Positions 40,625-62,045 of a DNA stretch of 64,000 nucleotides are shown here, piece by piece. Positions within the stretch are counted from its first letter, which is position 1; every line of letters begins with the position of its first letter. The stretch comes from a virus (lineage: Duplodnaviria; Heunggongvirae; Uroviricota; Caudoviricetes). The stretch is from the IMG/VR virus record IMGVR_UViG_2654587772_000002. The stretch is one strand, 5' to 3'. Under the pieces are notes generated by a model that was given only the letters and a program-made list of their open reading frames with translations, was not told the origin of the DNA and made no database searches. A program made the translations under genes and the position numbers.

Positions 40625-40828
40625 TTATAATTGAGCCGTGGCGTTAGTCAACTACGAAGACGTGGCCATTACCTACTTAACCAGTTCCGCCAGGGCAGCA
40701 GAGTAGGTTTCATCTCGGATGTACCATGCCTGCATGTTTTCCAGAGAAGCCCGCGAGGTTCCCGGACAGGACTCTGCCATTGCGATAGATTAAATGCAAT
40801 AACCTAAAAGCGATAACGTGGTGGAAAA

Positions 40829-41468
40829 ATGTTCATCAGAGCTTATTTAAGGGCATCAACGGAAGATCAGTTTGCCGATCGGGCAAAAGAGATGCTGGGG
40901 CAGTTTGTTCAGGAGCGGGGACATAAAATAGCCAGTTACTACCGGGAGAACATAAGCGGTACAAAACTCGACCGCCGGAACTGGGACGCTTACTGATGGA
41001 CAGCCACCGCAATGATATTTTACTGGTCGAGCAAATTGACCGCCTGACCCGTCTGAGTAACAGTGACTGGATTACGCTGAAAAAGCAGATAGAACAACAC
41101 GAACTGCGGATTGTCGCCTGGATGTATCCACCTCATGGCAGGCGCTGTCAGATAAAGACCCTTCGCAGGCTGACCCAATCACCCGCGCCGTGATAACCGC
41201 CATCAATAACATGCTTATCGACCTGATGGCCGCGATGTCGCATAAGGACTGGCTGAGCCGTCGCCAACGGCAACAACAGGGAATTGAACGGGCTCATACG
41301 CTGGGTAAATACCGGGGATAACAGGCCGATCAGGAACGGCATCAGAAAGTCCTGTACTACTGGCAGGTCAAGAAACTAAGTATCCATGAAACGGCAGATG
41401 CGACAGGGTACAGTCCTTCACAGATATGCCGCATTCAAGCCCTTTATAGAGAGCCTGAATCGGAATAA
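40829..41468 (+). pseudogene. Serine recombinase (resolvase/invertase family) pseudogene with at least 3 frame disruptions
   Basis: MFIRAYLRASTEDQ... / DRPELGRLLMDSHRNDILLVEQIDRLTRL / ...HETADATGYSPSQICRI (HTH) in three different frames. Confidence 0.6.
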
Positions 41469-41574
41469 AAAGTAGCCCAGGCGTTAATGGATTACCTTTC
41501 CAGGCTAAGCTCATTGCTCCTGTCAGATACGCAGCCCTGCCTGTAATAATACAGACTGGGCAATGTGTTGCCAC

Positions 41575-41976
41575 TCAGGCTGACAACTGTCGGAGGATAT
41601 CCGCTGTATTATAATGAGCCCGTTTTTCTATATATTTCCCGTCTTTCAGAGTGATCATAAACATCAGAGAAAAGCGCACTTTCCTGCCGCTGGCAGGATG
41701 CCCAAGGAATTCACGGGTCTGCACGCCTTCAAAGATAAGATAGCAGGCGACTTTATCGTCTCTGGCAAAGATTTCGTGGATACGCATTGTAAATCCCGGA
41801 AAAGCATCCATATGGCCTTTTTCCTGTACGATAAACTGCTCACTGTTCAGCGGTGTATCCACCTGAGAATAGAATTTAAAATCCGGATGGCAGAGGTTTT
41901 TCACCTCATCATATTTATTTTCTTCAATCAGACGATAAAACTTTTTAACCGTTTTGATATTTTCTTAAACAGACAT
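41575..41976 (-). pseudogene. SnoaL-like small protein with in-frame TAA at codon 4 (ATG TCT GTT TAA)
   Basis: Natural ATG at 41976 followed by stop at 41965-41967, frame then open to 41575; NTF2/SnoaL-like composition. Confidence 0.45.
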
Positions 41977-41984
41977 ATTGCACC

Positions 41985-42974
41985 TCATTTTTCAGTTTCT
42001 TTACCTGCCGGAATATTGCCTTCCGGCGTTCCGTTAAATGTTTTTCGCCATTCACTGGGACTGACTCCCATCCGCTGCCGGAATATCTGCCGGAAAGTAA
42101 TGGTGGACTGAAAGCCTGCCAGTTCGGCAACCCGCTCCACTGCAATATCTGTACTTTCCAGCAGTTCCTGACTCCGCCGGAGACGCTCTGTGGTGATCCA
42201 CTCCCAGACCGTCATTCCTGTGGCCGAATGAAAATGGCGTGTAAGCGTTCTTCGGCTCATGGAGGCTAAATGGGCCAGAGTGTCAATATCATGTGGTAAT
42301 CCCAGATTTGCGGACAGGTATTCCAGCAGCTGGTTTATGCGGTTATCGGACGTACTTTTGGGAATAAGCAGTTGCCGGTACTGTGCCTGTCCGCCTTCCC
42401 GGTAAGGAGGAGCAACCATCCGGCGGGCTATTTGATTAGCCGTATATCTGCCCAGGCGTTGCCGGATCACATGGAGACAACAGTCCAGTGCTGCGGCTGT
42501 ACCGGCTGAGGTGATAATCCGCTCGTCCTCAACATAAAGCACGTTCACGTCCAGATGAACCGCCGGGAAAAGCATCTGGAAATCCCGTTCAGCCTCCCAG
42601 TGCGTGGCCGCCCGTTTACCATCCAGCAGACCGGTGTAAGCCAGAACAAAACTCCCCAGGCACAGGCCCACCACCTGAGCTCCATTTTTCCAGGCTGCAA
42701 CCAGGGCACTGAGCAGAGTTTCAGAAGGCCTTTCATGGATGTGTTTCCAGAAAGGAATAATAACGATATCGGCCTCTGCCAGTGCATCAAGCCCGTATTC
42801 TGCCCTCATCGCCGTACCTTCAGCAGACCAGATAAGCCCGGGCTCTTCCGCACATACCCGGCGGCTGAAGAGGGCCTTCCCTTCCAGTATCTCCCCGAAC
42901 AGGATTAATGGAACGGAGACATGAAATGTACTGAACCCTTCGGTGATCACTATAGCGACAGTGATGGTGGACAT
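41985..42974 (-). CDS. GlxA-family transcriptional regulator (DJ-1/PfpI domain + AraC HTH)
   Basis: N-terminal class-I glutamine amidotransferase-like region, C-terminal AraC-type HTH. Confidence 0.75.
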   Translation of the reverse strand: MSTITVAIVITEGFSTFHVSVPLILFGEILEGKALFSRRVCAEEPGLIWSAEGTAMRAEYGLDALAEADIVIIPFWKHIHERPSETLLSALVAAWKNGAQVVGLCLGSFVLAYTGLLDGKRAATHWEAERDFQMLFPAVHLDVNVLYVEDERIITSAGTAAALDCCLHVIRQRLGRYTANQIARRMVAPPYREGGQAQYRQLLIPKSTSDNRINQLLEYLSANLGLPHDIDTLAHLASMSRRTLTRHFHSATGMTVWEWITTERLRRSQELLESTDIAVERVAELAGFQSTITFRQIFRQRMGVSPSEWRKTFNGTPEGNIPAGKETEK

Positions 42975-42989
42975 GCCATGGCCTCCGGG

Positions 42990-43766
42990 TTAAATCGTAA
43001 CTGATTCACCATCAGCAGGAGCGACAACTGACGCCTGGATCTGGTTATCGCGGGCATATTCCAGCAGTTCCTGACGGGTCAGCAGACAGTGGTTTACGGC
43101 CTCCATGTGCGTTGCCACAATCAGTGCCTCTGGTACGATACGATGGGCTTTCAGGACATCTTCCCTGCCGAAAATAATGGGGCCGAATCCGAGAACATGC
43201 GCCCAGCCCGTATTCATAATAACGACGCCAGGATTGAACCGACGTAAATTATCCTCTACAGCCTTGATCCAGATGGTATCCCCAACCAGATAGAGCGTTT
43301 TTTCGGACGGATGCTGGAAGACCACCCCACAGGCATCCCCAAGAATTGCTGCGAGTTGCGGGTTAGCATAGGCTTCGTCCGAACCATGCTGACAAACGGT
43401 TTTAATAAGTGAAATTTCGCCAAATGTGCTTTTGTCAGACAGAATAACAAGGTTGCTGAAGCCCTGGGAACGCAGGATCTTTTCATCATGTTCATTCTGA
43501 ACATAAATCAGTTTATCTTTCGGGATGTGCGCAACAGCCGCTTCATCCCAGTGGTCAGGGTGTGTGTGGGTGACAATAATGGCATCCACATCCAGCAGTA
43601 CATCAAGGTCAAAAGGCAGCTCAGTCATCGGGATGCGGATATCTGACCGGGCCGTTCCTTCGAATCCCGGATAGGCTTCTTTTTTCGCAAGCATCGGATC
43701 GACAAGAAATTTTTTACCAGCGTAAGAAATGAGTTGTGTGGCGTTACGTACCTGGATGATCTTCAT
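42990..43766 (-). CDS. MBL-fold metallo-hydrolase
   Basis: THTHPDHWDE (HxHxDH) motif. Confidence 0.75.
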   Translation of the reverse strand: MKIIQVRNATQLISYAGKKFLVDPMLAKKEAYPGFEGTARSDIRIPMTELPFDLDVLLDVDAIIVTHTHPDHWDEAAVAHIPKDKLIYVQNEHDEKILRSQGFSNLVILSDKSTFGEISLIKTVCQHGSDEAYANPQLAAILGDACGVVFQHPSEKTLYLVGDTIWIKAVEDNLRRFNPGVVIMNTGWAHVLGFGPIIFGREDVLKAHRIVPEALIVATHMEAVNHCLLTRQELLEYARDNQIQASVVAPADGESVTI

Positions 43767-43981
43767 TTTAGCAAGTCCTGTATTGGTTAATAACCATCAG
43801 AGCCATATCATGATGGCCTAATGTGATAATTATGATTAAATCAGGCCTGCCTGCCACTGAAATAATGCCATATTTGGATGATATCAGGCCATTCTTCTGG
43901 CTCTCAGGTTTCAGGAATATGTCTGCTGAAAGCGGGTACAGATCTGACGCATTGAAGGGAAGTATCGTCCTTTAAGGCTTA

Positions 43982-44371
43982 TTGATGTCAGCCAGTACAA
44001 AAAATCATCTTAACGTACAATATCTTCCGTTTCCCAAACGGAGCCCACCAACGACGGAGGAACGGCGCATCGCCAATGCTCTTGGCGCTCTCCCCTGCAT
44101 TGCCTGCTATATGCCTGGAGTAATATCTAATGAGGTGTCTCTGAACCATATCGCCGGTCGTACCGCGCCGGGTTGTCACAAAAAGCAATTGCCACTTTGT
44201 AGATGGCACCACCAGCATGCAGCACCGGCTGAAGTAAGAGAAAAATACCCCTGGCTGGTCCCTGTTCATGCCGATGGTGTGGTTGGAGGCAAGAAAGAAT
44301 TCACCTTGCTGAACAAGTCAGAGATGGAGTTGCTGGCTGACGCCTATGAAATGGCAAACGTCATGCACTAA
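43982..44371 (+). CDS. Cys/His-rich small protein (possible HNH/Ref-like nuclease core)
   Basis: CIACY...NHIAG...GCHKK..PLCRWHHQH pattern. Confidence 0.35.
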   Translation: MMSASTKNHLNVQYLPFPKRSPPTTEERRIANALGALPCIACYMPGVISNEVSLNHIAGRTAPGCHKKQLPLCRWHHQHAAPAEVREKYPWLVPVHADGVVGGKKEFTLLNKSEMELLADAYEMANVMH

Positions 44372-44560: not shown

Positions 44561-45205
44561 ATGGATAAGAAAATATGCGTTGTTTCGATGAGCGTCGGTA
44601 AACCGGCGTCAATGACTGCTGCATGGATCAACAACGAGCTGATAATGGCTGAGCGGACCAGCTACCCTGAACGCCGCCGCGATATGGAACTCCAGCTGCT
44701 GCGCGAATTGCGAGAAAAAGAGGAAAAGGGTTTTATCGTGCTGGTGGAAGAGGAAAACAGCTTTATTACCGGTCGAGTTGGCCAGCGTGTAAGGTTGCGC
44801 GATCCCTTCATGAACGGCAGGCCGGTACTAATTGAAGCAATGCAGATTTACAAGGAGCTGGAACGCCAGAAAGCGATCAAGTTACCGCGCAAGGAATCCG
44901 GCAAATACATCCTCCACCAAAGCATCTTCGATTCCGAACACGATAAAAAAGGCGATGAGTTTTTCAACATCAACTGGAGCGAAATAACGACAGAGCATGT
45001 TCTGACGTTGTTATGCTGCTTCGCAACAGAATACAACAACGTGGTAAGCGCAGACTACATCAGGACAATGACAGACACCGTTACTAAACAAGACAACGAA
45101 TATTCACCATATGAGCCATTTGTAAATATGATAAAAGCATTTTATCGGATGGAGCTCGCTAAAGTTCCTCAAGGTAAATTAACAGGTAAGGATAACATCT
45201 TTTAA
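44561..45205 (+). CDS. Hypothetical protein (214 aa)
   Basis: AGGGGG SD, ATG 44561. Confidence 0.45.
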   Translation: MDKKICVVSMSVGKPASMTAAWINNELIMAERTSYPERRRDMELQLLRELREKEEKGFIVLVEEENSFITGRVGQRVRLRDPFMNGRPVLIEAMQIYKELERQKAIKLPRKESGKYILHQSIFDSEHDKKGDEFFNINWSEITTEHVLTLLCCFATEYNNVVSADYIRTMTDTVTKQDNEYSPYEPFVNMIKAFYRMELAKVPQGKLTGKDNIF

Positions 45206-45258
45206 GCACAGTAATGAGGTGCTTAGATGTTAATATCAATATCCTAACTCTCTGCATC

Positions 45259-45948
45259 TCATAAATCTGATAGCCACTTACTATCTATGGACTCAATCTC
45301 CGTCAGCGGAATTGATGGGAAAAAATATCCCTGAGCGCCCCATAGCCCTATTCCTTTTGATAACTTATGACAATCAATGTTTTCGACGCCTTCAGCGATG
45401 ATATTCGGACATAACTTTTTTAAATTGCTAATAATGACATCAAAATGAGGCTTAATCATATGCTCTTGAAAAAATGACTTATCAAGTTTTATTGCATGGT
45501 ATTTATTTTTAATTAATGCTTTCATGGTGGCGTTACCACTTCCAAAATCATCAAGCCAAACATAGTCTGTCAAAGTCAGGAGAAAGGGTATAACGTAATC
45601 CTCATCGCTTAAATCAGGGTAGTTTTCTGATATCTCAAGAACTATAAATTTATTGTTTTTAATTAACTCTTGAGTTTGTTTATTACTGTATATATATATA
45701 CATGTATCATAATCTACATTAATAGAACATAGTATATTATGGCGTTCAAAAAAACACTTGTATTTCATTATTGTGTTAAGTTGTGATTTAAGTAAATTAA
45801 TCTTCATCTTATTGGTAAACATACCCAATACTCTTTGAGTAGGAAGAGCGACACCATCTTTGGAGCGAAATCTGCTTAACACTTCTACTGCAATCAACTT
45901 GTTCGTGCTCGTAGAAATGATTGGTTCTGCAATGTAGATAACTTCCAT
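45259..45948 (-). CDS. Stand-alone EAL-domain protein (c-di-GMP phosphodiesterase-like), AT-rich gene
   Basis: EVL(SRF), ENYP, DDFGSG, KLDKSF, EGVE motifs in EAL order. Confidence 0.75.
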   Translation of the reverse strand: MEVIYIAEPIISTSTNKLIAVEVLSRFRSKDGVALPTQRVLGMFTNKMKINLLKSQLNTIMKYKCFFERHNILCSINVDYDTCIYIYSNKQTQELIKNNKFIVLEISENYPDLSDEDYVIPFLLTLTDYVWLDDFGSGNATMKALIKNKYHAIKLDKSFFQEHMIKPHFDVIISNLKKLCPNIIAEGVENIDCHKLSKGIGLWGAQGYFFPSIPLTEIESIDSKWLSDL

Positions 45949-46184
45949 ATCCCCACCCTCAAGTTTTAAATTGCTTGATTTTGCTCAGATAACGAGCCCC
46001 CTATATTTACAAGAGTTACACTCTACTTTTGTAGATTAAATGTCAATTTATTTGTTTGTGATAATATTGAAAAATATCAATTAAAACAATCAAAAAATGT
46101 GACATAAATCAATAATTTTATTTTTACACAACTTCTTGATTTCTGAGCCTAGCTATCTCTATTCTTATTCAAAGCCTCTTTAGA

Positions 46185-46919
46185 ATGGTGGTGGCCATGT
46201 CAGCAGTTTGTTACTTCATACTCATAAAGAAACCTATAAGCTTTCAATTTCTTAAGGATTTCTTAATATTAAATTATGGTGATGTGTTGTTGCTTAAGCA
46301 TTCTGAGCATGAATGCTTAAAAATCTATTCAGACAAATATATAGAATTCGAACTCAATGATAATACCGTAAGAAACTATTTATCATGCAACAACAACCAT
46401 GGAAACCAATCGCTGGATAAGTGTCCGCATTTGCTAAAAAAGTCTTTTGCCTATCCTGATTTATTAATCAGGATGATCGATAATATAAGCGATCAAAATC
46501 ATATCCATTCTGATTTTAGGGAGGCAGTAACTTTTTCATTACTCTCAATTTTTAATGATGTTGATAACTTTAGAGCATTTCTTACGTCTGGTATGCCCAC
46601 TTTCTCAGGGAAAGTGCGCAGCATATTTCTTTCAGATGTATCTAAACACTGGAAACTAAGAGACCTAACCGATTATCTCTACATGAGTGAAAGCTTAATA
46701 AAGAAAAAACTATTATTGGAAAACACCTCCTTCAGTAAGTTATTACTTGATACACGGATGGCTTTTGCTATTAAATTACTAAAGCAAAATCATCCAGTCA
46801 AACAAGTATCAGAAAGCTGTGGCTTTAGTAGTACATCGTACTTTGTGTGCCTGTTCAGGCAATATTATAATTGCACGCCACGTGAATATGCAAAACATCA
46901 ATTATTATCTGGAAAATAA
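46185..46919 (+). CDS. AraC-family regulator of the AppY/EnvY/GadX/Rns type, AT-rich gene
   Basis: C-terminal HTH closely resembles E. coli AppY (WKLRDLTDYLYMSESLIKKKL...TRMAFAIKLL...SSTSYFVCLFRQYY). Confidence 0.75.
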   Translation: MVVAMSAVCYFILIKKPISFQFLKDFLILNYGDVLLLKHSEHECLKIYSDKYIEFELNDNTVRNYLSCNNNHGNQSLDKCPHLLKKSFAYPDLLIRMIDNISDQNHIHSDFREAVTFSLLSIFNDVDNFRAFLTSGMPTFSGKVRSIFLSDVSKHWKLRDLTDYLYMSESLIKKKLLLENTSFSKLLLDTRMAFAIKLLKQNHPVKQVSESCGFSSTSYFVCLFRQYYNCTPREYAKHQLLSGK

Positions 46920-46957
46920 GATGCATTTATCTCCCAGATAATATTGTAATATTAAAC

Positions 46958-47206
46958 TCAGTCAGCATTTAGTAGCAGAGCATTATCTATGATGATCTGC
47001 TCCCATTCTTCGAATGCCCGGTCACGGACGCCCTGGGGAACACTGTTTGTTTTGAAATCAACGACTGTCCGCCATTTCCCGTCCGGACGGTACATGCGCA
47101 GAGCTTTACTTCCCCCTTCCCTACGCACCTCAACGTTATGCTTGTCAGCAAACTCTTGTAATGCTCGTAGCGTCCCATGCTTTACTGTGTAGTATCGCTT
47201 TTTCAA
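46958..47206 (-). CDS. Small protein at lxc position (immT-like)
   Basis: 82-aa ORF downstream of ulx/darB on same strand. Confidence 0.5.
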   Translation of the reverse strand: MKKRYYTVKHGTLRALQEFADKHNVEVRREGGSKALRMYRPDGKWRTVVDFKTNSVPQGVRDRAFEEWEQIIIDNALLLNAD

Positions 47207-54455: not shown

Positions 54456-54476
54456 AACAAGTGACTAGTGTTAAAT
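54456..54476 (+). promoter_or_regulatory. Candidate late promoter upstream of prt (AACAAGTGACTAGTG + TTAAAT)
   Basis: Conserved motif shared with 17950 and 59472 sites. Confidence 0.45.
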
Positions 54477-54510
54477 TCCGTTCAAACACGATGCGAATTA
54501 TTCTAATTAA

Positions 54511-56241
<1,731 letters not shown>

Positions 56242-56273
56242 ACGGCAAACATTCCCAATTCACAGAGTCCGAC

Positions 56274-57404
56274 CTAAACCACATGAAGCGGCTTAGGAAT
56301 TACAGACTCTCCAAGGGCTAACACTGCCAGCCCGGCAGCTTTTATATTACGGGCCGCGTTAATATCACGATCATGCTCTGCGCCACATTCCGGGCAGTGC
56401 CATTTACGAATATTAAGAGGCATTTTTTGCATGGTGAAGCCGCAACTGCTGCAACGTTTGGAAGAAGGGAAATACTGGTCGATAGCGACAATGCTACGTC
56501 CACCCCATTCTCCTTTGTACTGGAGTTGGCGTACAAGTTCGCTCCAGCCTGCGTCAGCTATTGCTTTAGACAGCTTCGGGTTACGGATCATGTTTTTCAC
56601 TTTAAGGGATTCGACGCAAACAACTTGGTTTTCGTTAATCAGTTTGCGGGACAACTTATGCAGGTTATCCATCCGACAATCGACTATTCTCGCGTGGAGG
56701 CGGGCAACCTTTAAACGTGCTTTGGCGCGGTTCTTTGAGCCTTTTTGTTTCTTGCTCAATCTGCGCTGTAACACTGCTAATCGCTTCGCGTATTTAGCGT
56801 TGTGTCGAGGATTGCCAGTTTTAAAACCGGTATCGGTGACGAACAAATCTTTTAAACCAATATCAATGCCGACCGTGGAAACGGTGATCGGCAGTGATAC
56901 AGGCTCAAACTCGCAGAGACAGGATACAAAATATCGTCCGGCAGCATCCCTGGTGATAGTGACAGTGGATGGAGCAGACGGCAACGGACGGCTCCAGCGA
57001 ACATCTAACGGCTCTTTGCTCTTTGCCATGTACAGCTTGCCGTCACGGTATTTAAATGCGCTGGCAGTTAGTTCTGCGGCCTGTTTATGCCGCTTGCTCT
57101 TAAAAACTGGGTATGCAGCACGCCCGGCGAAAAAGTTAGCAAAAGCCGTTTGTTGGTGGCGCAGAGACTGCTGGAGGGGGACGCAGGAAACGTCATTCAG
57201 CCAAGCGAATTCTGGTTCTTTTTTCAGTGCCGTTAATTTGGCGCTGGCTTGTGCATAGCCGACCCTCTCATGGCGTGCGTAGTACGCATCGGTGCGCCAG
57301 CGAAGGAGGCTGTTATAGACAAAACGCACACACCCAAAAGTCCGGGCTAATAGCTCGGTTTGTTCGGGAGTTGGATAGAATCGATATTTATAGGCACGCT
57401 TCAT
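56274..57404 (-). CDS. tnpB: IS200/IS605-family TnpB (RuvC-like RNA-guided nuclease), no tnpA nearby
   Basis: N-terminal MKRAYKYRFYPTPEQ..., RuvC-like region, C-terminal zinc finger CSSCG...CPECG. Confidence 0.85.
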   Translation of the reverse strand: MKRAYKYRFYPTPEQTELLARTFGCVRFVYNSLLRWRTDAYYARHERVGYAQASAKLTALKKEPEFAWLNDVSCVPLQQSLRHQQTAFANFFAGRAAYPVFKSKRHKQAAELTASAFKYRDGKLYMAKSKEPLDVRWSRPLPSAPSTVTITRDAAGRYFVSCLCEFEPVSLPITVSTVGIDIGLKDLFVTDTGFKTGNPRHNAKYAKRLAVLQRRLSKKQKGSKNRAKARLKVARLHARIVDCRMDNLHKLSRKLINENQVVCVESLKVKNMIRNPKLSKAIADAGWSELVRQLQYKGEWGGRSIVAIDQYFPSSKRCSSCGFTMQKMPLNIRKWHCPECGAEHDRDINAARNIKAAGLAVLALGESVIPKPLHVV

Positions 57405-57516
57405 GTTCTATATAATACATTGAAACTAATGAGTATATAAATGAATACACGGACGAAAATGTTATCAAAGCCAATATACCAACAGACATTAGGTAAGGTA
57501 GCTGGAGGGCAATATA

Positions 57517-58536
57517 ATGACTGATGTTTTGAAAACGGTCACTGACCGCTTTTGTCTCTATAGCAATGCTCGAAAAGGTCGCCAGAACGGGCGACAGTAT
57601 GTATTAAGCGCGGTTAAGACCATGCTTGAAAGCAAGGAAACTCAGGAAGGTTTACGCCTTGGAGAGCTTTTCGGCTATTACGGTCACGGTCGCCGACAGC
57701 TGACCGGCAAACTGGAAGTACCAGAAACCAGCGTAATCATGGTGGAAGGTCGCCCGGTCGTAATCGACAATGTTCCAGCGTGCCGCACAGTGGCTATATC
57801 CGTTGACGACAACGGCATCGTTACCCATACACAGGAAATTCTTAACACAGAGCCGGGTAAAATTGTCGCCGCGATGATCGAAAGCCGAGCTGGTGGCTGG
57901 AGCTGGGCCACTGGCGGGCGTGAGTCCGGGAAAATCGCTGTAACCACCAGCTTCCATGGTGTGGATTATGTGACAACGCCGAACTATATCAGTCTGGATC
58001 ATCCTGCCAGCGCCGGAATGTTTGAAAGCGCGGATTCTAAATCTTTACTGGCAGAGTCCCTGGCGGCGCATGGGTACTCCGACGAGTCAGTGCAGGCCGT
58101 TATATCCCATTACGGCAAAATGGCTGAACTGGAAATGATGGTGGAGGCGACAGAGCGTACGGCAGAACTGGAAACTGCACTACTCGAAAGCCAGGGCCGC
58201 CACCTCGAAGCAATGGCCAAGATCGCAGATGCTGAAGCGCGAATCGCTTTGCTGGAGGAAACAGCGGGTATCCGCGACGATGTGCTGGCAGCAATGCAAG
58301 ACGAACTGGATAACCTCCCGATCTTCGTCTCCGCCGCCCAAAAAGACGCATTCCGCCTCAAAGAACCTGGTGATGCAAAAATCGTTGCCACACTTTTCGA
58401 ATCTCTGATCAAAGTTGGCGCACGCAACTTGCCTGTCACCAAGAAAATTAAGGAGGTTCCGCAAGCGGCTAACGTCCAGGCACCGCGTGAGACAAGCATC
58501 ATCACGTTTAATAATTCAATCAATCCGTTTAAATAA
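57517..58536 (+). CDS. pro: Head processing protease/scaffold-like protein (pro position)
   Basis: 339 aa; coiled-coil C-terminal half; follows portal in synteny. Confidence 0.6.
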   Translation: MTDVLKTVTDRFCLYSNARKGRQNGRQYVLSAVKTMLESKETQEGLRLGELFGYYGHGRRQLTGKLEVPETSVIMVEGRPVVIDNVPACRTVAISVDDNGIVTHTQEILNTEPGKIVAAMIESRAGGWSWATGGRESGKIAVTTSFHGVDYVTTPNYISLDHPASAGMFESADSKSLLAESLAAHGYSDESVQAVISHYGKMAELEMMVEATERTAELETALLESQGRHLEAMAKIADAEARIALLEETAGIRDDVLAAMQDELDNLPIFVSAAQKDAFRLKEPGDAKIVATLFESLIKVGARNLPVTKKIKEVPQAANVQAPRETSIITFNNSINPFK

Positions 58537-58545
58537 CCACCAAAA

Positions 58546-58569
58546 ATAACCCCGGCAGCTGCCGGGGTT
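58546..58569. terminator. Bidirectional hairpin terminator (CCCCGGCAG / CTGCCGGGG)
   Basis: Perfect 9-bp stem between convergent genes. Confidence 0.55.
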
Positions 58570-59548: not shown

Positions 59549-60037
59549 GTGGCACAACGCGGTGTAAACAAAGTCATCCTGATTGGTACCCTGGGGCAAG
59601 ACCCGGAGATCAGGTATATACCAAATGGCGGAGCGGTCGGAAGACTCAGCATCGCAACGAATGAATCATGGCGCGACAAGCAAACTGGCCAACAGAAAGA
59701 GCAAACAGAATGGCATAAAGTCGTTTTGTTCGGAAAACTTGCTGAAATTGCGAGTGAATATTTACGAAAAGGTTCTCAGGTCTACATCGAAGGGAAACTT
59801 AAAACCCGTAAGTGGACAGATGACGCCGGTGTAGAACGTTACACGACGGAAATTATCGTCAGCCAGGGCGGCACCATGCAAATGATCGGCGCTCGCCGTG
59901 ACGATTCACAGTCCTCAAATGGCTGGAGGCAATCAAACCAACCTCAAAACCACCAGCAATACAGCGGTGGCGGTAAACCTCAGAGCAACGCCAATAACGA
60001 ACCTCCAATGGACTTTGACGACGATATTCCGTTTTGA
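59549..60037 (+). CDS. ssb: Single-stranded DNA-binding protein
   Basis: OB-fold N-terminus ([18 protein letters not shown]), Gly/Gln-rich tail ending DFDDDIPF. Confidence 0.9.
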
Positions 60038-60234
60038 ATGTGTAAAAAACGACTGAAAGAAAAGCGGTGGTCCAAACGCCAACAAAAGCACGAACTCGCT
60101 AAAAAACGCCAAAGTTGGCAATGGCACGCGCTTTTCACGAAAAGAACACCCCGAGATATTGCTTTCGCTGGTGGGAAAACATTCCTGACCCACCTGAAGG
60201 CGCAATACATCAGGTTTTAAGCAGAGGAAAGACT

Positions 60235-60912
60235 ATGAATAACATGACAACGAAAGAGCTTTTGACGGCACTTCCAAAATACAAAAGCCATAAAACAGTT
60301 CGTGCCTCAAAAATCAAAGATATCGAAATTATCGCCCTAATGGATGTGGTCCTTCTTTGCAACATCGAAGTCGTTGAGCCAGAAGGGGTAAAAGTCCATG
60401 TTGATAAAATGTTTTTGCAAAAACACCGACCAGAAATTGGCGGATATCTGGTCGCTTACGAGGACGGATCTCTGTCCTATTCACCAGAAAAAACATTTGA
60501 AGAAGGCTTTAGTCGGACTAACGACTTCTTCGAAAATGGGGTATCGCTCAGCATTGAAGGTCACAACGGGGTGACATTCATTACAGCCAAGGACGTAACT
60601 ATTTCTGCTGGCGGTATCGCTACTCTACAAGAAGAAATCGACCTTGAAGCAGCCGACTTTTCTGACGCGCTGATGTGGCTGAAGGATGGCAAGAAAGTTG
60701 CTCGACGCGGGTGGAACGGCGAAAACCAATTCTGCTGGCTGGTTCCTGAAGGACAGTACCCGGCACGAATGGAAGCCATTAAGGGATATTTCCCCGGCGA
60801 CCTCGTTCCGTATGGTGCTTATTTCGCCTTAAAAAATGCACAAGGTGTAGTTGTTCCGTGGGTTCCTTCTGTAGGCGACTTACTGGCATGTGACTGGTTT
60901 GTAGTGGAGTGA
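60235..60912 (+). CDS. Hypothetical protein, possibly DUF2829-like (ARRGW motif)
   Basis: GAGGA SD; MWLKDGKKVARRGWNG. Confidence 0.45.
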   Translation: MNNMTTKELLTALPKYKSHKTVRASKIKDIEIIALMDVVLLCNIEVVEPEGVKVHVDKMFLQKHRPEIGGYLVAYEDGSLSYSPEKTFEEGFSRTNDFFENGVSLSIEGHNGVTFITAKDVTISAGGIATLQEEIDLEAADFSDALMWLKDGKKVARRGWNGENQFCWLVPEGQYPARMEAIKGYFPGDLVPYGAYFALKNAQGVVVPWVPSVGDLLACDWFVVE

Positions 60913-60918
60913 TTTAAC

Positions 60919-61707
60919 GTGGAAAATACTAAAGCAATTCAATACCGCCTGCGTAATGGCCAGAGTGTCGAAGTGACCATCAATAATGATGGTGTACCTG
61001 GCGAAAAGGTTTCTATCTCTGATCTGGCTATCGAAAAAACCATCATGTGCCACCTTGGCTTTACTGAAGAAGTGAGCAAAAAGCATGGTGTAGCTATCTG
61101 GCGAACAATGGATACTGGCATGCGCAGATTCATTACCGCTCGTACCCCAGGTATGACCATGATGGACCTCATGCAGATTGCGCCGCTGTTTGAGTGTGAA
61201 CCTTTGGATGTATTCAGCAATCCAGCTATCTGCCAGCAGTTATATGGTGAGATGAAACTCGCGGTTACCCCCATTGTGCTGCATGAAGGATCGCTTGCTG
61301 GCGTATGGAAAGTAGAGCGAATTTCAAGCTATATGCCCTTCCACATCCATGTCAACGGCGTAATCGCAGGTGAAAATCAACCTGTTTCAGTTACAAAGTC
61401 AGACCTCAAGCGCGCAATTCTTGAAGCAAGTTGTCGAGTTATCGGCCTGGGCAAACAGTCTTATGTTTTCTTCCCGGCTGGCCCTGAAGGCCCGGCAGAA
61501 ATTCTGATTATGGATGCCGATCTGCTCTGGCAAATACAGTTTCTGATTGGCAAAAGCATCATCCGCGCTGAAGAACTCGATCAGTACATTACCTGCACGA
61601 TGACGGATGAAGTCAAAAGTGTGGCTATAGCCAATGCCCGGAACCTATGTCGTGCTGCATTAACAGAACTGCAAGAAAACACCACGGAAGAAGTGGAAAG
61701 CGATTAA
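60919..61707 (+). CDS. Hypothetical protein (262 aa)
   Basis: ORF; operon with previous gene. Confidence 0.45.
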   Translation: MENTKAIQYRLRNGQSVEVTINNDGVPGEKVSISDLAIEKTIMCHLGFTEEVSKKHGVAIWRTMDTGMRRFITARTPGMTMMDLMQIAPLFECEPLDVFSNPAICQQLYGEMKLAVTPIVLHEGSLAGVWKVERISSYMPFHIHVNGVIAGENQPVSVTKSDLKRAILEASCRVIGLGKQSYVFFPAGPEGPAEILIMDADLLWQIQFLIGKSIIRAEELDQYITCTMTDEVKSVAIANARNLCRAALTELQENTTEEVESD

Positions 61708-61738
61708 AAAAAATCCCGCCGATTGGCGGGATTTCTTC
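61705..61738. terminator. Bidirectional terminator (A-run, AATCCCGCC-GATT-GGCGGGATT, T-rich)
   Basis: Perfect 9-bp stem between convergent genes. Confidence 0.6.
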
Positions 61739-62045
61739 AATATACGATCTGGTCTACATGATCACCAAAATCATCGTCGTCGTCCTCATCGCCACCATCT
61801 ACTGCTGGCCAATCAACAAACCAGCCAGCGTAAAGATGCAGCGTTCGGAGAACATCACTTGCGGGAGCATCAAGGGTGTTAACGAATCCCATATAGCTAT
61901 TGGGATTTGCTCCAGCTATGGCTTCAGCGATCATGTCCTCGGTAATGTCACCGGAGATAATGCTTAAACGCCCGGAAACTTCTTCATTATCATCAAATTC
62001 GATAATGGCATCTCCGCCTAATGGCGCTGCGATTTTAATCTGCAT
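61737..62045 (-). CDS. Small acidic protein downstream of Dar-like gene
   Basis: 102-aa ORF overlapping upstream gene end. Confidence 0.4.
   Translation of the reverse strand: MQIKIAAPLGGDAIIEFDDNEEVSGRLSIISGDITEDMIAEAIAGANPNSYMGFVNTLDAPASDVLRTLHLYAGWFVDWPAVDGGDEDDDDDFGDHVDQIVY

Follow-up and report, generated by a model that had tools for sequence, protein, structure and literature searches.

A tnpB-only element of the GipA/ISEc42 clade splits the prt-pro overlap of a P1-like phage-plasmid and carries a predicted guide against the insert-free junction

How can a 1.3-kb selfish element persist between two overlapping, translationally coupled essential phage genes? The question is raised by the viral record IMGVR_UViG_2654587772_000002, a 64,000-nucleotide (nt) stretch (hereafter the window) of a P1-like phage-plasmid whose darB, prt, pro, lyz and ssb are 98-99% identical to those of P1, and in which a tnpB gene lies between prt and pro. 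The anatomy of the locus shows a way: landing at a start codon with a ribosome-binding site of its own. An earlier reading of this DNA, made without database searches (the sequence-only reading), had described a tnpA-less IS200/IS605 element encoding a TnpB of 376 amino acids (aa) with a RuvC-like domain and a C-terminal zinc finger, antiparallel between prt (stop at 56241) and pro (start at 57517), with 32 nt between the two converging stops (56242-56273). These coordinates are correct, and the identification is borne out by the analyses below. The features on which the argument rests are the following.

56222-57516, minus strand: the whole tnpB-only element, 1295 bp, with ends taken from the P1 empty site and the ends of the family.
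56274-57404, minus strand: tnpB, ATG start, TAG stop, 376 aa (1131 nt), an unbroken open reading frame (ORF).
54520-56241, plus strand: prt, 573 aa, stop codon TAA at 56239-56241.
56222-56241, plus strand: the prt tail as encoded by the element's right end, comprising six final codons and a stop (..IDNCPP, then stop).
57517-58536, plus strand: pro, the P1 head-processing gene, ATG start at 57517.
57517-57520, plus strand: ATGA, the pro start codon plus one base, whose complement TCAT is the target (transposon-associated motif, TAM) beside the left end.
57504-57509, plus strand: GGAGGG, a Shine-Dalgarno sequence from the element end, 7 nt upstream of the pro ATG, in the place of P1's own GAGGG.

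The element at 56222-57516 is a tnpA-less member of the IS200/IS605 family, IS1341 group, GipA/ISEc42 clade. Its boundaries were read from the insert-free junction of P1 (AF234172), ...AACGATA/ATGACTGA... (more fully ...GAGGGAAACGATA/ATGACTGA..., the slash marking the junction). In the window, aligned to P1, ...GAGGGAAACGATA is followed by the element, which runs from TTGACAATTG... to ...GGAGGGCAATATA, and then by ATGACTGA.... Placement of the insert against P1 is ambiguous by 3 nt and was settled by the ends common to the family: in all relatives the right end is ...GTCAA (tnpB sense), beyond which the flanks diverge, and the left end, beginning T(A/C)..ATGCC in the family alignment, comes directly after a conserved TCAT. 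A second empty site is available at the bioA-ybhB junction of E. coli NCTC11151 (AAGGAGGGTTC/ATGAAACTC), where strain CFT073 carries the element (TAGAATGCC...GTCAA, tnpB sense) precisely between TTC and the ybhB ATG, with no duplication. In both the P1 and the E. coli empty sites the insertion is 3' of TCAT, with neither target duplication nor terminal inverted repeats. An 18-bp target duplication, suggested by the BLAST overlap of two P1 blocks, was considered and rejected: it amounts to the 3-nt ambiguity (ATA/TAT) plus the likeness of the two Shine-Dalgarno regions. The span of 56242-57516 initially assigned to the element therefore holds at 57516, whereas its start at 56242 has to move 20 nt to the left, since the final 20 nt of prt lie within the right end; the true start by the P1 empty site is 56222. 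Of the two arrangements that had been foreseen for the right end, abutting or overlapping prt, it is the overlap that is found.

Absence of tnpA is supported in two ways. A tblastn search with the IS200C TnpA returned no TnpA homologue in the 64-kb window (E > 3), and the left end up to the tnpB ATG measures 112 nt. In relatives this span is 106-136 nt, so no relative has room for tnpA. The element is of an already-known kind: public records already annotate the TnpB, and the record of one carrier phage labels the gene 'ISEc42'. In the literature on ISEc42, gipA and TnpB in phage-plasmids we came upon no account of the insertion in P1, of TCAT as target or of a supplied Shine-Dalgarno. What is new here is the insertion anatomy, the clade-wide TCAT/start-codon target with Shine-Dalgarno replacement, the guide-RNA covariation, the loss of the left-end hairpin and the prediction of a guide against the empty junction.

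The insertion bears directly on how both neighbours are read. In P1 the ATGA does double duty, the pro start codon ATG overlapping the prt stop codon TGA. Insertion 3' of TCAT on the minus strand, directly before the pro ATG, splits this overlap. The C-terminus of prt is altered from ...KEGNDND in P1 to one ending IDNCPP, and in the carrier pEC21Z048-103K two of two right-end substitutions are synonymous for prt. On the other side, the left end brings the new Shine-Dalgarno GGAGGG, so a loss of pro translation is likely to be compensated. The sequence-only reading had raised a possible effect on prt-pro coupling; the overlap is indeed split, and the effect would be offset where translation of pro is concerned.

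The same arrangement recurs among relatives. At 79-87% identity these comprise gipA of Gifsy-1, the chromosomal gipA of B2 E. coli (CFT073, LF82, 536, Nissle and E2348/69, the same B2 strain set that has been named for gipA; PMC2941450) and copies on Citrobacter, Serratia and Yersinia plasmids. Our survey took in 74 distinct upstream flanks, drawn from GTDB representatives and IMG/VR, and 44 of them use TCAT. In 38 of these 44 TCAT-type insertions the abutting ATG opens an opposite-strand ORF of 80 codons or more, as against 27% for control TCAT sites within those flanks (binomial p = 3e-16). In 32 of the 44, a set that takes in nearly all enterobacterial members, the left end begins with 12-13 nt whose opposite strand is GGAGG(G)CAnTnTn, and the Shine-Dalgarno of these left ends sits 7-8 nt before the host ATG. 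Halomonas-type members also use TCAT at start codons, without supplying a Shine-Dalgarno. Annotated start codons abutted by a left end are those of pro (window), ybhB (CFT073), trbC (Citrobacter plasmid) and the gpU homologue (Gifsy-1); phage-borne members adjoin start codons of genes for tail terminator, Neck1, minor tail (twice) and baseplate hub, always antiparallel, and several lie within tail operons. Since the phage-borne relatives sit at structural-gene start codons, carriage in a phage morphogenesis operon is typical of the clade, and the initial impression that a late head operon is an unusual place for such an element is not upheld.

Copies of gipA/ISEc42 in Gifsy-1 and B2 E. coli make the closest comparison within the clade (79-81% nt and 84-86% aa identity, the same 376-aa ORF). 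Like the P1-borne element they are tnpB-only and antiparallel, with the left end at the ATG of the next gene (the gpU homologue or ybhB) supplying GGAGG and with a GTCAA right end; unlike it, they retain a G+C-rich left-end hairpin, and because their flanks differ so do their guides. The gene gipA has been reported as a virulence factor, not as a guide-RNA nuclease (PMC2941450), and GipA of Gifsy-1 and of AIEC/UPEC E. coli as a Peyer's-patch factor (PMC2941450; PMC3627910). The survey suggests that start-codon landing with an own ribosome-binding site is a general habit of the GipA/ISEc42 clade, undescribed in the literature as far as we found. Such a habit would bear on the reading of gipA 'virulence' phenotypes, for example through polar or translational effects on neighbour genes.

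Target choice varies within the family. A sub-group of more than five relatives uses TTAT or TTAC, has a GCGCG/CGCGC outer left-end stem and is located downstream of terminators; this is a natural target switch, coupled to covariation in the left-end stem (GCGCG/CGCGC versus GCCTCC/GGAGGC). The TTAC-like target that the sequence-only reading had looked to belongs to this other sub-group, and the copy in the window uses TCAT. In relatives the displaced host Shine-Dalgarno is seen as CTCC or TCCTT in the flank 3' of the right end, and predicted guides with CTCC/TCCTT occur in many of them (more than eight). As these predicted guides include the complement of the displaced Shine-Dalgarno, the guide RNAs of such relatives carry an anti-Shine-Dalgarno-like sequence resembling the 3' end of 16S rRNA. 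Two diverged IMG/VR members, L110 (85% aa identity to the query) and L135 (78%), occupy different prophages, each lying at the start codon of a minor-tail-protein gene; the two genes are orthologous, and the shared site reflects either ancient co-divergence or repeated homing to one site.

The protein has the hallmarks of an intact TnpB. Three Pfam domains were detected, all above cut-offs: HTH_OrfB_IS605 (PF12323, 1e-21), OrfB_IS605 (PF01385, 4e-25) and Cas12f1-like_TNB (PF07282, 1e-23). Alignment with ISDra2 TnpB (8bf8/8exa) is full-length (E = 7e-77) and places its D191/E278/D361 on D181/E265/D347, and the zinc-finger cysteines C318/C321/C337/C340 (both CxxC pairs) are kept. The ratio of nonsynonymous to synonymous substitution rates (dN/dS) of tnpB is 0.08-0.12 against the CFT073, Citrobacter and Gifsy-1 copies, indicating purifying selection since the split from these relatives. 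A frameshift would have undone the assignment; the tnpB ORF is intact in the window and unbroken in 9 of 11 P1-borne copies examined. Six carriers besides the window (E. coli, E. albertii and E. fergusonii, on IncY or p0111-like replicons) share the intact 1131-nt ORF.

Next to tnpB, two further features on the same strand make up the predicted guide RNA.

56222-56371, minus strand: predicted guide-RNA (omega RNA, reRNA) scaffold, overlapping the tnpB 3' end and reaching the right end, with a terminal hairpin at 56230-56253.
56202-56221, minus strand: predicted guide TATCGTTTCCCTCTTTAAAG, that is TATCGTTTCCCTCTTT(AAAG), in the flank directly beyond the right end on its 3' side and antisense to the last part of prt; a length of 16-20 nt is assumed.

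In the established TnpB/omega-RNA architecture it is the flank beyond the right end, on its 3' side, that serves as guide. For the scaffold, the 150 nt before the right end from 49 distinct family members were aligned and folded with RNAalifold. The consensus has 32 pairs in seven helices, in which 97.1% of cells are paired compared with 32-45% when the partners are slid. Two-sided, compensatory changes were observed at 20-21 of the 32 pairs, 21 as against 7-12 in the slid controls, and none of 500 shuffles reached the covariation measures of the real alignment; an independent script was used as well. The window copy retains all scaffold pairs, its terminal hairpin showing, relative to the family consensus, two compensatory changes of both partners and three G.U pairs, and its single-sequence RNA fold is -72.9 kcal/mol (z = -3.4). 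The only Rfam match is to RAGATH-18 (RF03064) at 56252-56317, sub-threshold at 21.8 bits against a gathering threshold of 44.9 (E = 0.51); membership was not taken, the score being below threshold. The match has the same nested-stem layout as RAGATH-18 reRNAs (CCC..GGAGAGUC ... GACUCUGUGAA..GGGAA) at the tnpB 3' end. RAGATH-18 RNAs are the guide RNAs of IS607 TnpBs (PMC11061315), whereas the P1-borne protein is of IS605 type.

Compared with ISDra2 TnpB/omega-RNA (8bf8, 8exa, 8h1j), the P1-borne system has a common domain order and catalytic D/E/D, a scaffold that overlaps the tnpB 3' end up to the right end with a guide from the flank, and insertion 3' of a short target with no duplication. 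ISDra2 has tnpA and a TTGAT target, whereas the P1-borne element lacks tnpA and uses TCAT; its left end, unlike that of ISDra2, bears an opposite-strand Shine-Dalgarno and in this copy has no hairpin, and its nuclease activity is predicted. As a natural TnpB closely related to that of ISDra2, the protein is a candidate for TCAT-TAM activity.

What would such a nuclease cut? TCAT followed by the 20-mer guide match occurs once in P1, at the empty site, and nowhere in the window, and at least 269 E. coli records contain the 46-nt empty junction as a perfect match. By this prediction the nuclease would act on the allele that lacks the insert, to which the occupied allele would be immune. TnpB is reportedly able to assist transposon retention or homing in IS605/IS607 elements (Meers et al. 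2023). In keeping with that mechanism, the predicted guide target of the P1-borne element is the transposon-less donor joint (TAM plus flank); unlike the IS605/IS607 case, the empty site here is a conserved phage junction. Because this junction sits in hundreds of related phage-plasmids, the retention logic would act between genomes, in the manner of a phage homing endonuclease.

Spread by transposition is a different matter, as the left end of the window copy departs from the family.

57405-57516, minus strand: left end, 112 nt, 32% G+C, without the G+C-rich subterminal hairpin of relatives.

In relatives the hairpin is CCCCGGCC-N4-GGCCGGGG, bordered by GCCTCC/GGAGGC. Folded as single-stranded DNA, the window left end reaches -2.5 kcal/mol (z = +0.95), as against -12.9 for the left end of CFT073. 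The subterminal hairpins expected of an IS200/IS605 element are therefore half present: the one at the right end is found, with compensatory changes, and the one at the left end is missing, with no stable fold in its place. Copies at least 99% identical to the element occur solely at the prt/pro junction (37 E. coli records, 24 in PLSDB, one phage record and three IMG/VR contigs), and no second locus for this lineage was found among 5,426 E. coli genomes, PLSDB, phage records, GTDB representatives and IMG/VR. Since the left-end hairpin is missing and near-identical copies are confined to one site, the window copy is probably immobile and the lineage probably no longer transposes.

Two promoters, one of them putative, set the context in which the element would be expressed and tolerated.

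57441-57436 (-35, TTTATA) and 57417-57412 (-10, TATTAT), minus strand: putative tnpB promoter within the left end, spacing 18, from a promoter scan.
54459-54477, plus strand: late promoter LPpro of P1, upstream of prt, a 19-mer identical to the AF234172 feature.

As the sigma-70-like promoter ends 7 nt before the ATG, the tnpB mRNA may be nearly leaderless. From their predicted course, LPpro transcripts must traverse the element, antisense to tnpB, to reach pro.

Taken as a whole, the reading we favour, and consider probable, is that of a constrained tnpB-only element placed before the pro ATG with its own Shine-Dalgarno, which has probably lost transposition and which we infer to act as a homing or retention nuclease. 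Translation of pro would begin from the element-supplied Shine-Dalgarno, on late messages that cross the element antisense to tnpB, and for this reason the insertion would be tolerated in an essential operon. TnpB and its guide RNA (a 16-20 nt flank, TATCGTTTCCCTCTTT..) would cut DNA carrying TCAT and a match to the flank, that is, the insert-free prt/pro junction of other P1-like genomes or a copy that has lost the element. Repair from an occupied copy would then restore or spread the element by retention or homing, as shown for other TnpBs, and insert-free competitors may suffer damage. As TnpA-type excision and transposition of the P1 copy has probably been lost along with the left-end hairpin, recombination or homing would be its only route of spread.

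This picture is consistent with the pattern seen among carriers. The insert is absent from P1, P7, RCS47, SJ46 and others. Complete E. coli genomes hold about 489 P1-like prt-pro junctions, of which about 36 are occupied (about 7%, with about 93% empty); the insert is therefore not a conserved part of all P1-like phages, which would have spoken against the sequence-only reading. Across carriers the element diverges at 3-14 of its 1295 positions (0.2-1.1%), and the 1.5-kb flanks show 13-30 differences each (0.9-2.0%), the same distance as from insert-free P1. The element is thus 2-8 times less diverged than its own flanks, across several flank haplotypes, two replicon types and three host species. 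Certain carriers have variants of the right flank in common with P1, and on leaving the element the first flank differences are reached after 100-190 nt. The pattern fits movement of the element between backbones through short recombination tracts or homing, and TnpB-induced breaks would promote such movement; ordinary mosaicism could yield the same.

Several points weigh against the favoured reading. That TnpB is an active nuclease, which TAM it uses, how long its guide is, whether it homes and whether pro is translated from the new Shine-Dalgarno are all predictions from sequence. The start-codon bias could reflect survival of harmless insertions and not targeting, pure survivorship being possible. 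An occupancy of about 7% is modest for an efficient homing element, and the lower divergence of the element could stem from flanks recombining with insert-free relatives, TnpB being uninvolved. A weak terminator-like site on the plus strand within the element (56324-56348, with its hairpin at 56324-56338), formed by the reverse of one guide-RNA stem followed by CTTTTATATT, might render the insertion polar on pro. Among P1-borne copies about 12 nonsynonymous and 10-11 synonymous unique substitutions were counted, a dN/dS of roughly 0.4 on small numbers; the counts are approximate, with two indel-bearing records left out, and the raised ratio suggests that selection on TnpB inside P1 may be relaxed. 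The two records with frame-shifting tnpB indels, L002 (ON470615) and L140 (IMG/VR), also belong here, and these indels are probably sequencing or assembly errors rather than decay; prt and darB are likewise fragmented in ON470615.

A bolder, joint version goes further on two counts, and we advance it tentatively, giving it rather less than an even chance. Its first part is that the clade is specialised for a translation-neutral niche: with TCAT the complement of ATGA starts, and with a ready-made Shine-Dalgarno in the left end, essential phage head and tail operons would become habitable without silencing of the next gene. Its second part is that the P1 copy, having lost transposase-dependent mobility, would serve as an RNA-guided homing or exclusion module, in which the TnpB and guide of a lysogen cut incoming or co-resident insert-free P1 relatives at the prt/pro junction, converting or eliminating them. 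A predicted guide against a junction present in hundreds of natural P1-like plasmids makes this a testable natural case of TnpB homing or exclusion between competing phage-plasmids.

Among the rivals, the one that survives best, though we judge it unlikely, is that the element is an inert passenger, which inserted once, long ago, and has since been passed on by vertical descent and ordinary recombination among mosaic P1-like plasmids, its TnpB and guide RNA being unexpressed or inactive here. A decayed left end, a single occupied site in only about 7% of P1-like genomes and the relaxed substitution ratio among P1-borne copies are all what such a passenger would show, and the known mosaicism of P1-like genomes could alone explain the mismatch between element and flank divergence. 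An inert element would, however, hardly be expected to keep an unbroken ORF in 9 of 11 copies, spread over three host species and two replicon types, or all scaffold pairs, including the lineage-specific double compensatory changes in the terminal hairpin; the dN/dS of about 0.1 since the split from relatives and the kept tnpB promoter hexamers argue in the same direction.

A still mobile element would be compatible with the right end, whose hairpin and GTCAA terminus are intact, with the multicopy state of relatives in some Serratia and Klebsiella genomes (Serratia proteamaculans CBSDS_009 and Klebsiella sp. MISC125 among them), and with the IS200C tnpA located 115 bp past pro in a sibling plasmid. 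In that case the AT-rich left end would be a functional variant, and a TnpA of the host or plasmid, such as that of IS200C, would excise and transpose the element in trans. We regard this as very improbable, given that the lineage has no second location in any collection searched, that the left end has no hairpin, that the end hairpins of IS200C differ in sequence from those of the tnpB element family, and that the window holds no tnpA. An exapted, non-nuclease role, whether RNA-guided repression in the manner of TldR or service to host or phage as a 'virulence factor' of GipA type, is scarcely credible even though the GipA proteins of Gifsy-1 and AIEC/UPEC E. coli are close homologues (84-86% aa) and the guide is antisense to the prt 3' end: the TldR-like (nuclease-dead repressor) identity was rejected on the intact RuvC triad and zinc finger, the full length of 376 aa and the kept right end, the transposon ends and flank-derived guide are those of ordinary TnpB elements, and the mechanism of the GipA phenotypes is not known.

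For the carrier vB_EcoM-673R5 (ON470615), no virion data were found in the available part of the one paper found to name the phage, which deals with phages located in clinical E. coli isolates and phage-like plasmids, hence no claim of plaque formation by carriers is made.

One further feature lies at the border of the left end and tnpB.

57387-57416, plus strand: putative promoter-like site TTTATA-18-TATAAT, pointing out towards pro (consensus scan, 10/12 matches).

This site, whose TATAAT is a perfect -10 match, and the putative tnpB promoter are divergent (57412-57441 on the minus strand, 57387-57416 on the plus strand) and overlap within the left end and the first tnpB codons.

The sibling plasmid NZ_CP033882.1 is 100% identical to the window across the tnpB region. 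Its IS200C, complete with tnpA (L169:7817-8508), lies just beyond the 3' end of pro, after a terminator hairpin (CCCCGGCAGCTGCCGGGG and TTATTTTTG); the matching site of the window, 58541-58569, is empty. Three stretches of the window (about 40675-44046, 45070-46958 and 60035-61739) have no match longer than 500 nt in this otherwise collinear plasmid and represent variable accessory regions of the P1-like backbone. Finally, both PHROGs (phrog_1801) and phage records of RefSeq name Pro of P1 'tail fiber protein', probably a propagated misannotation.

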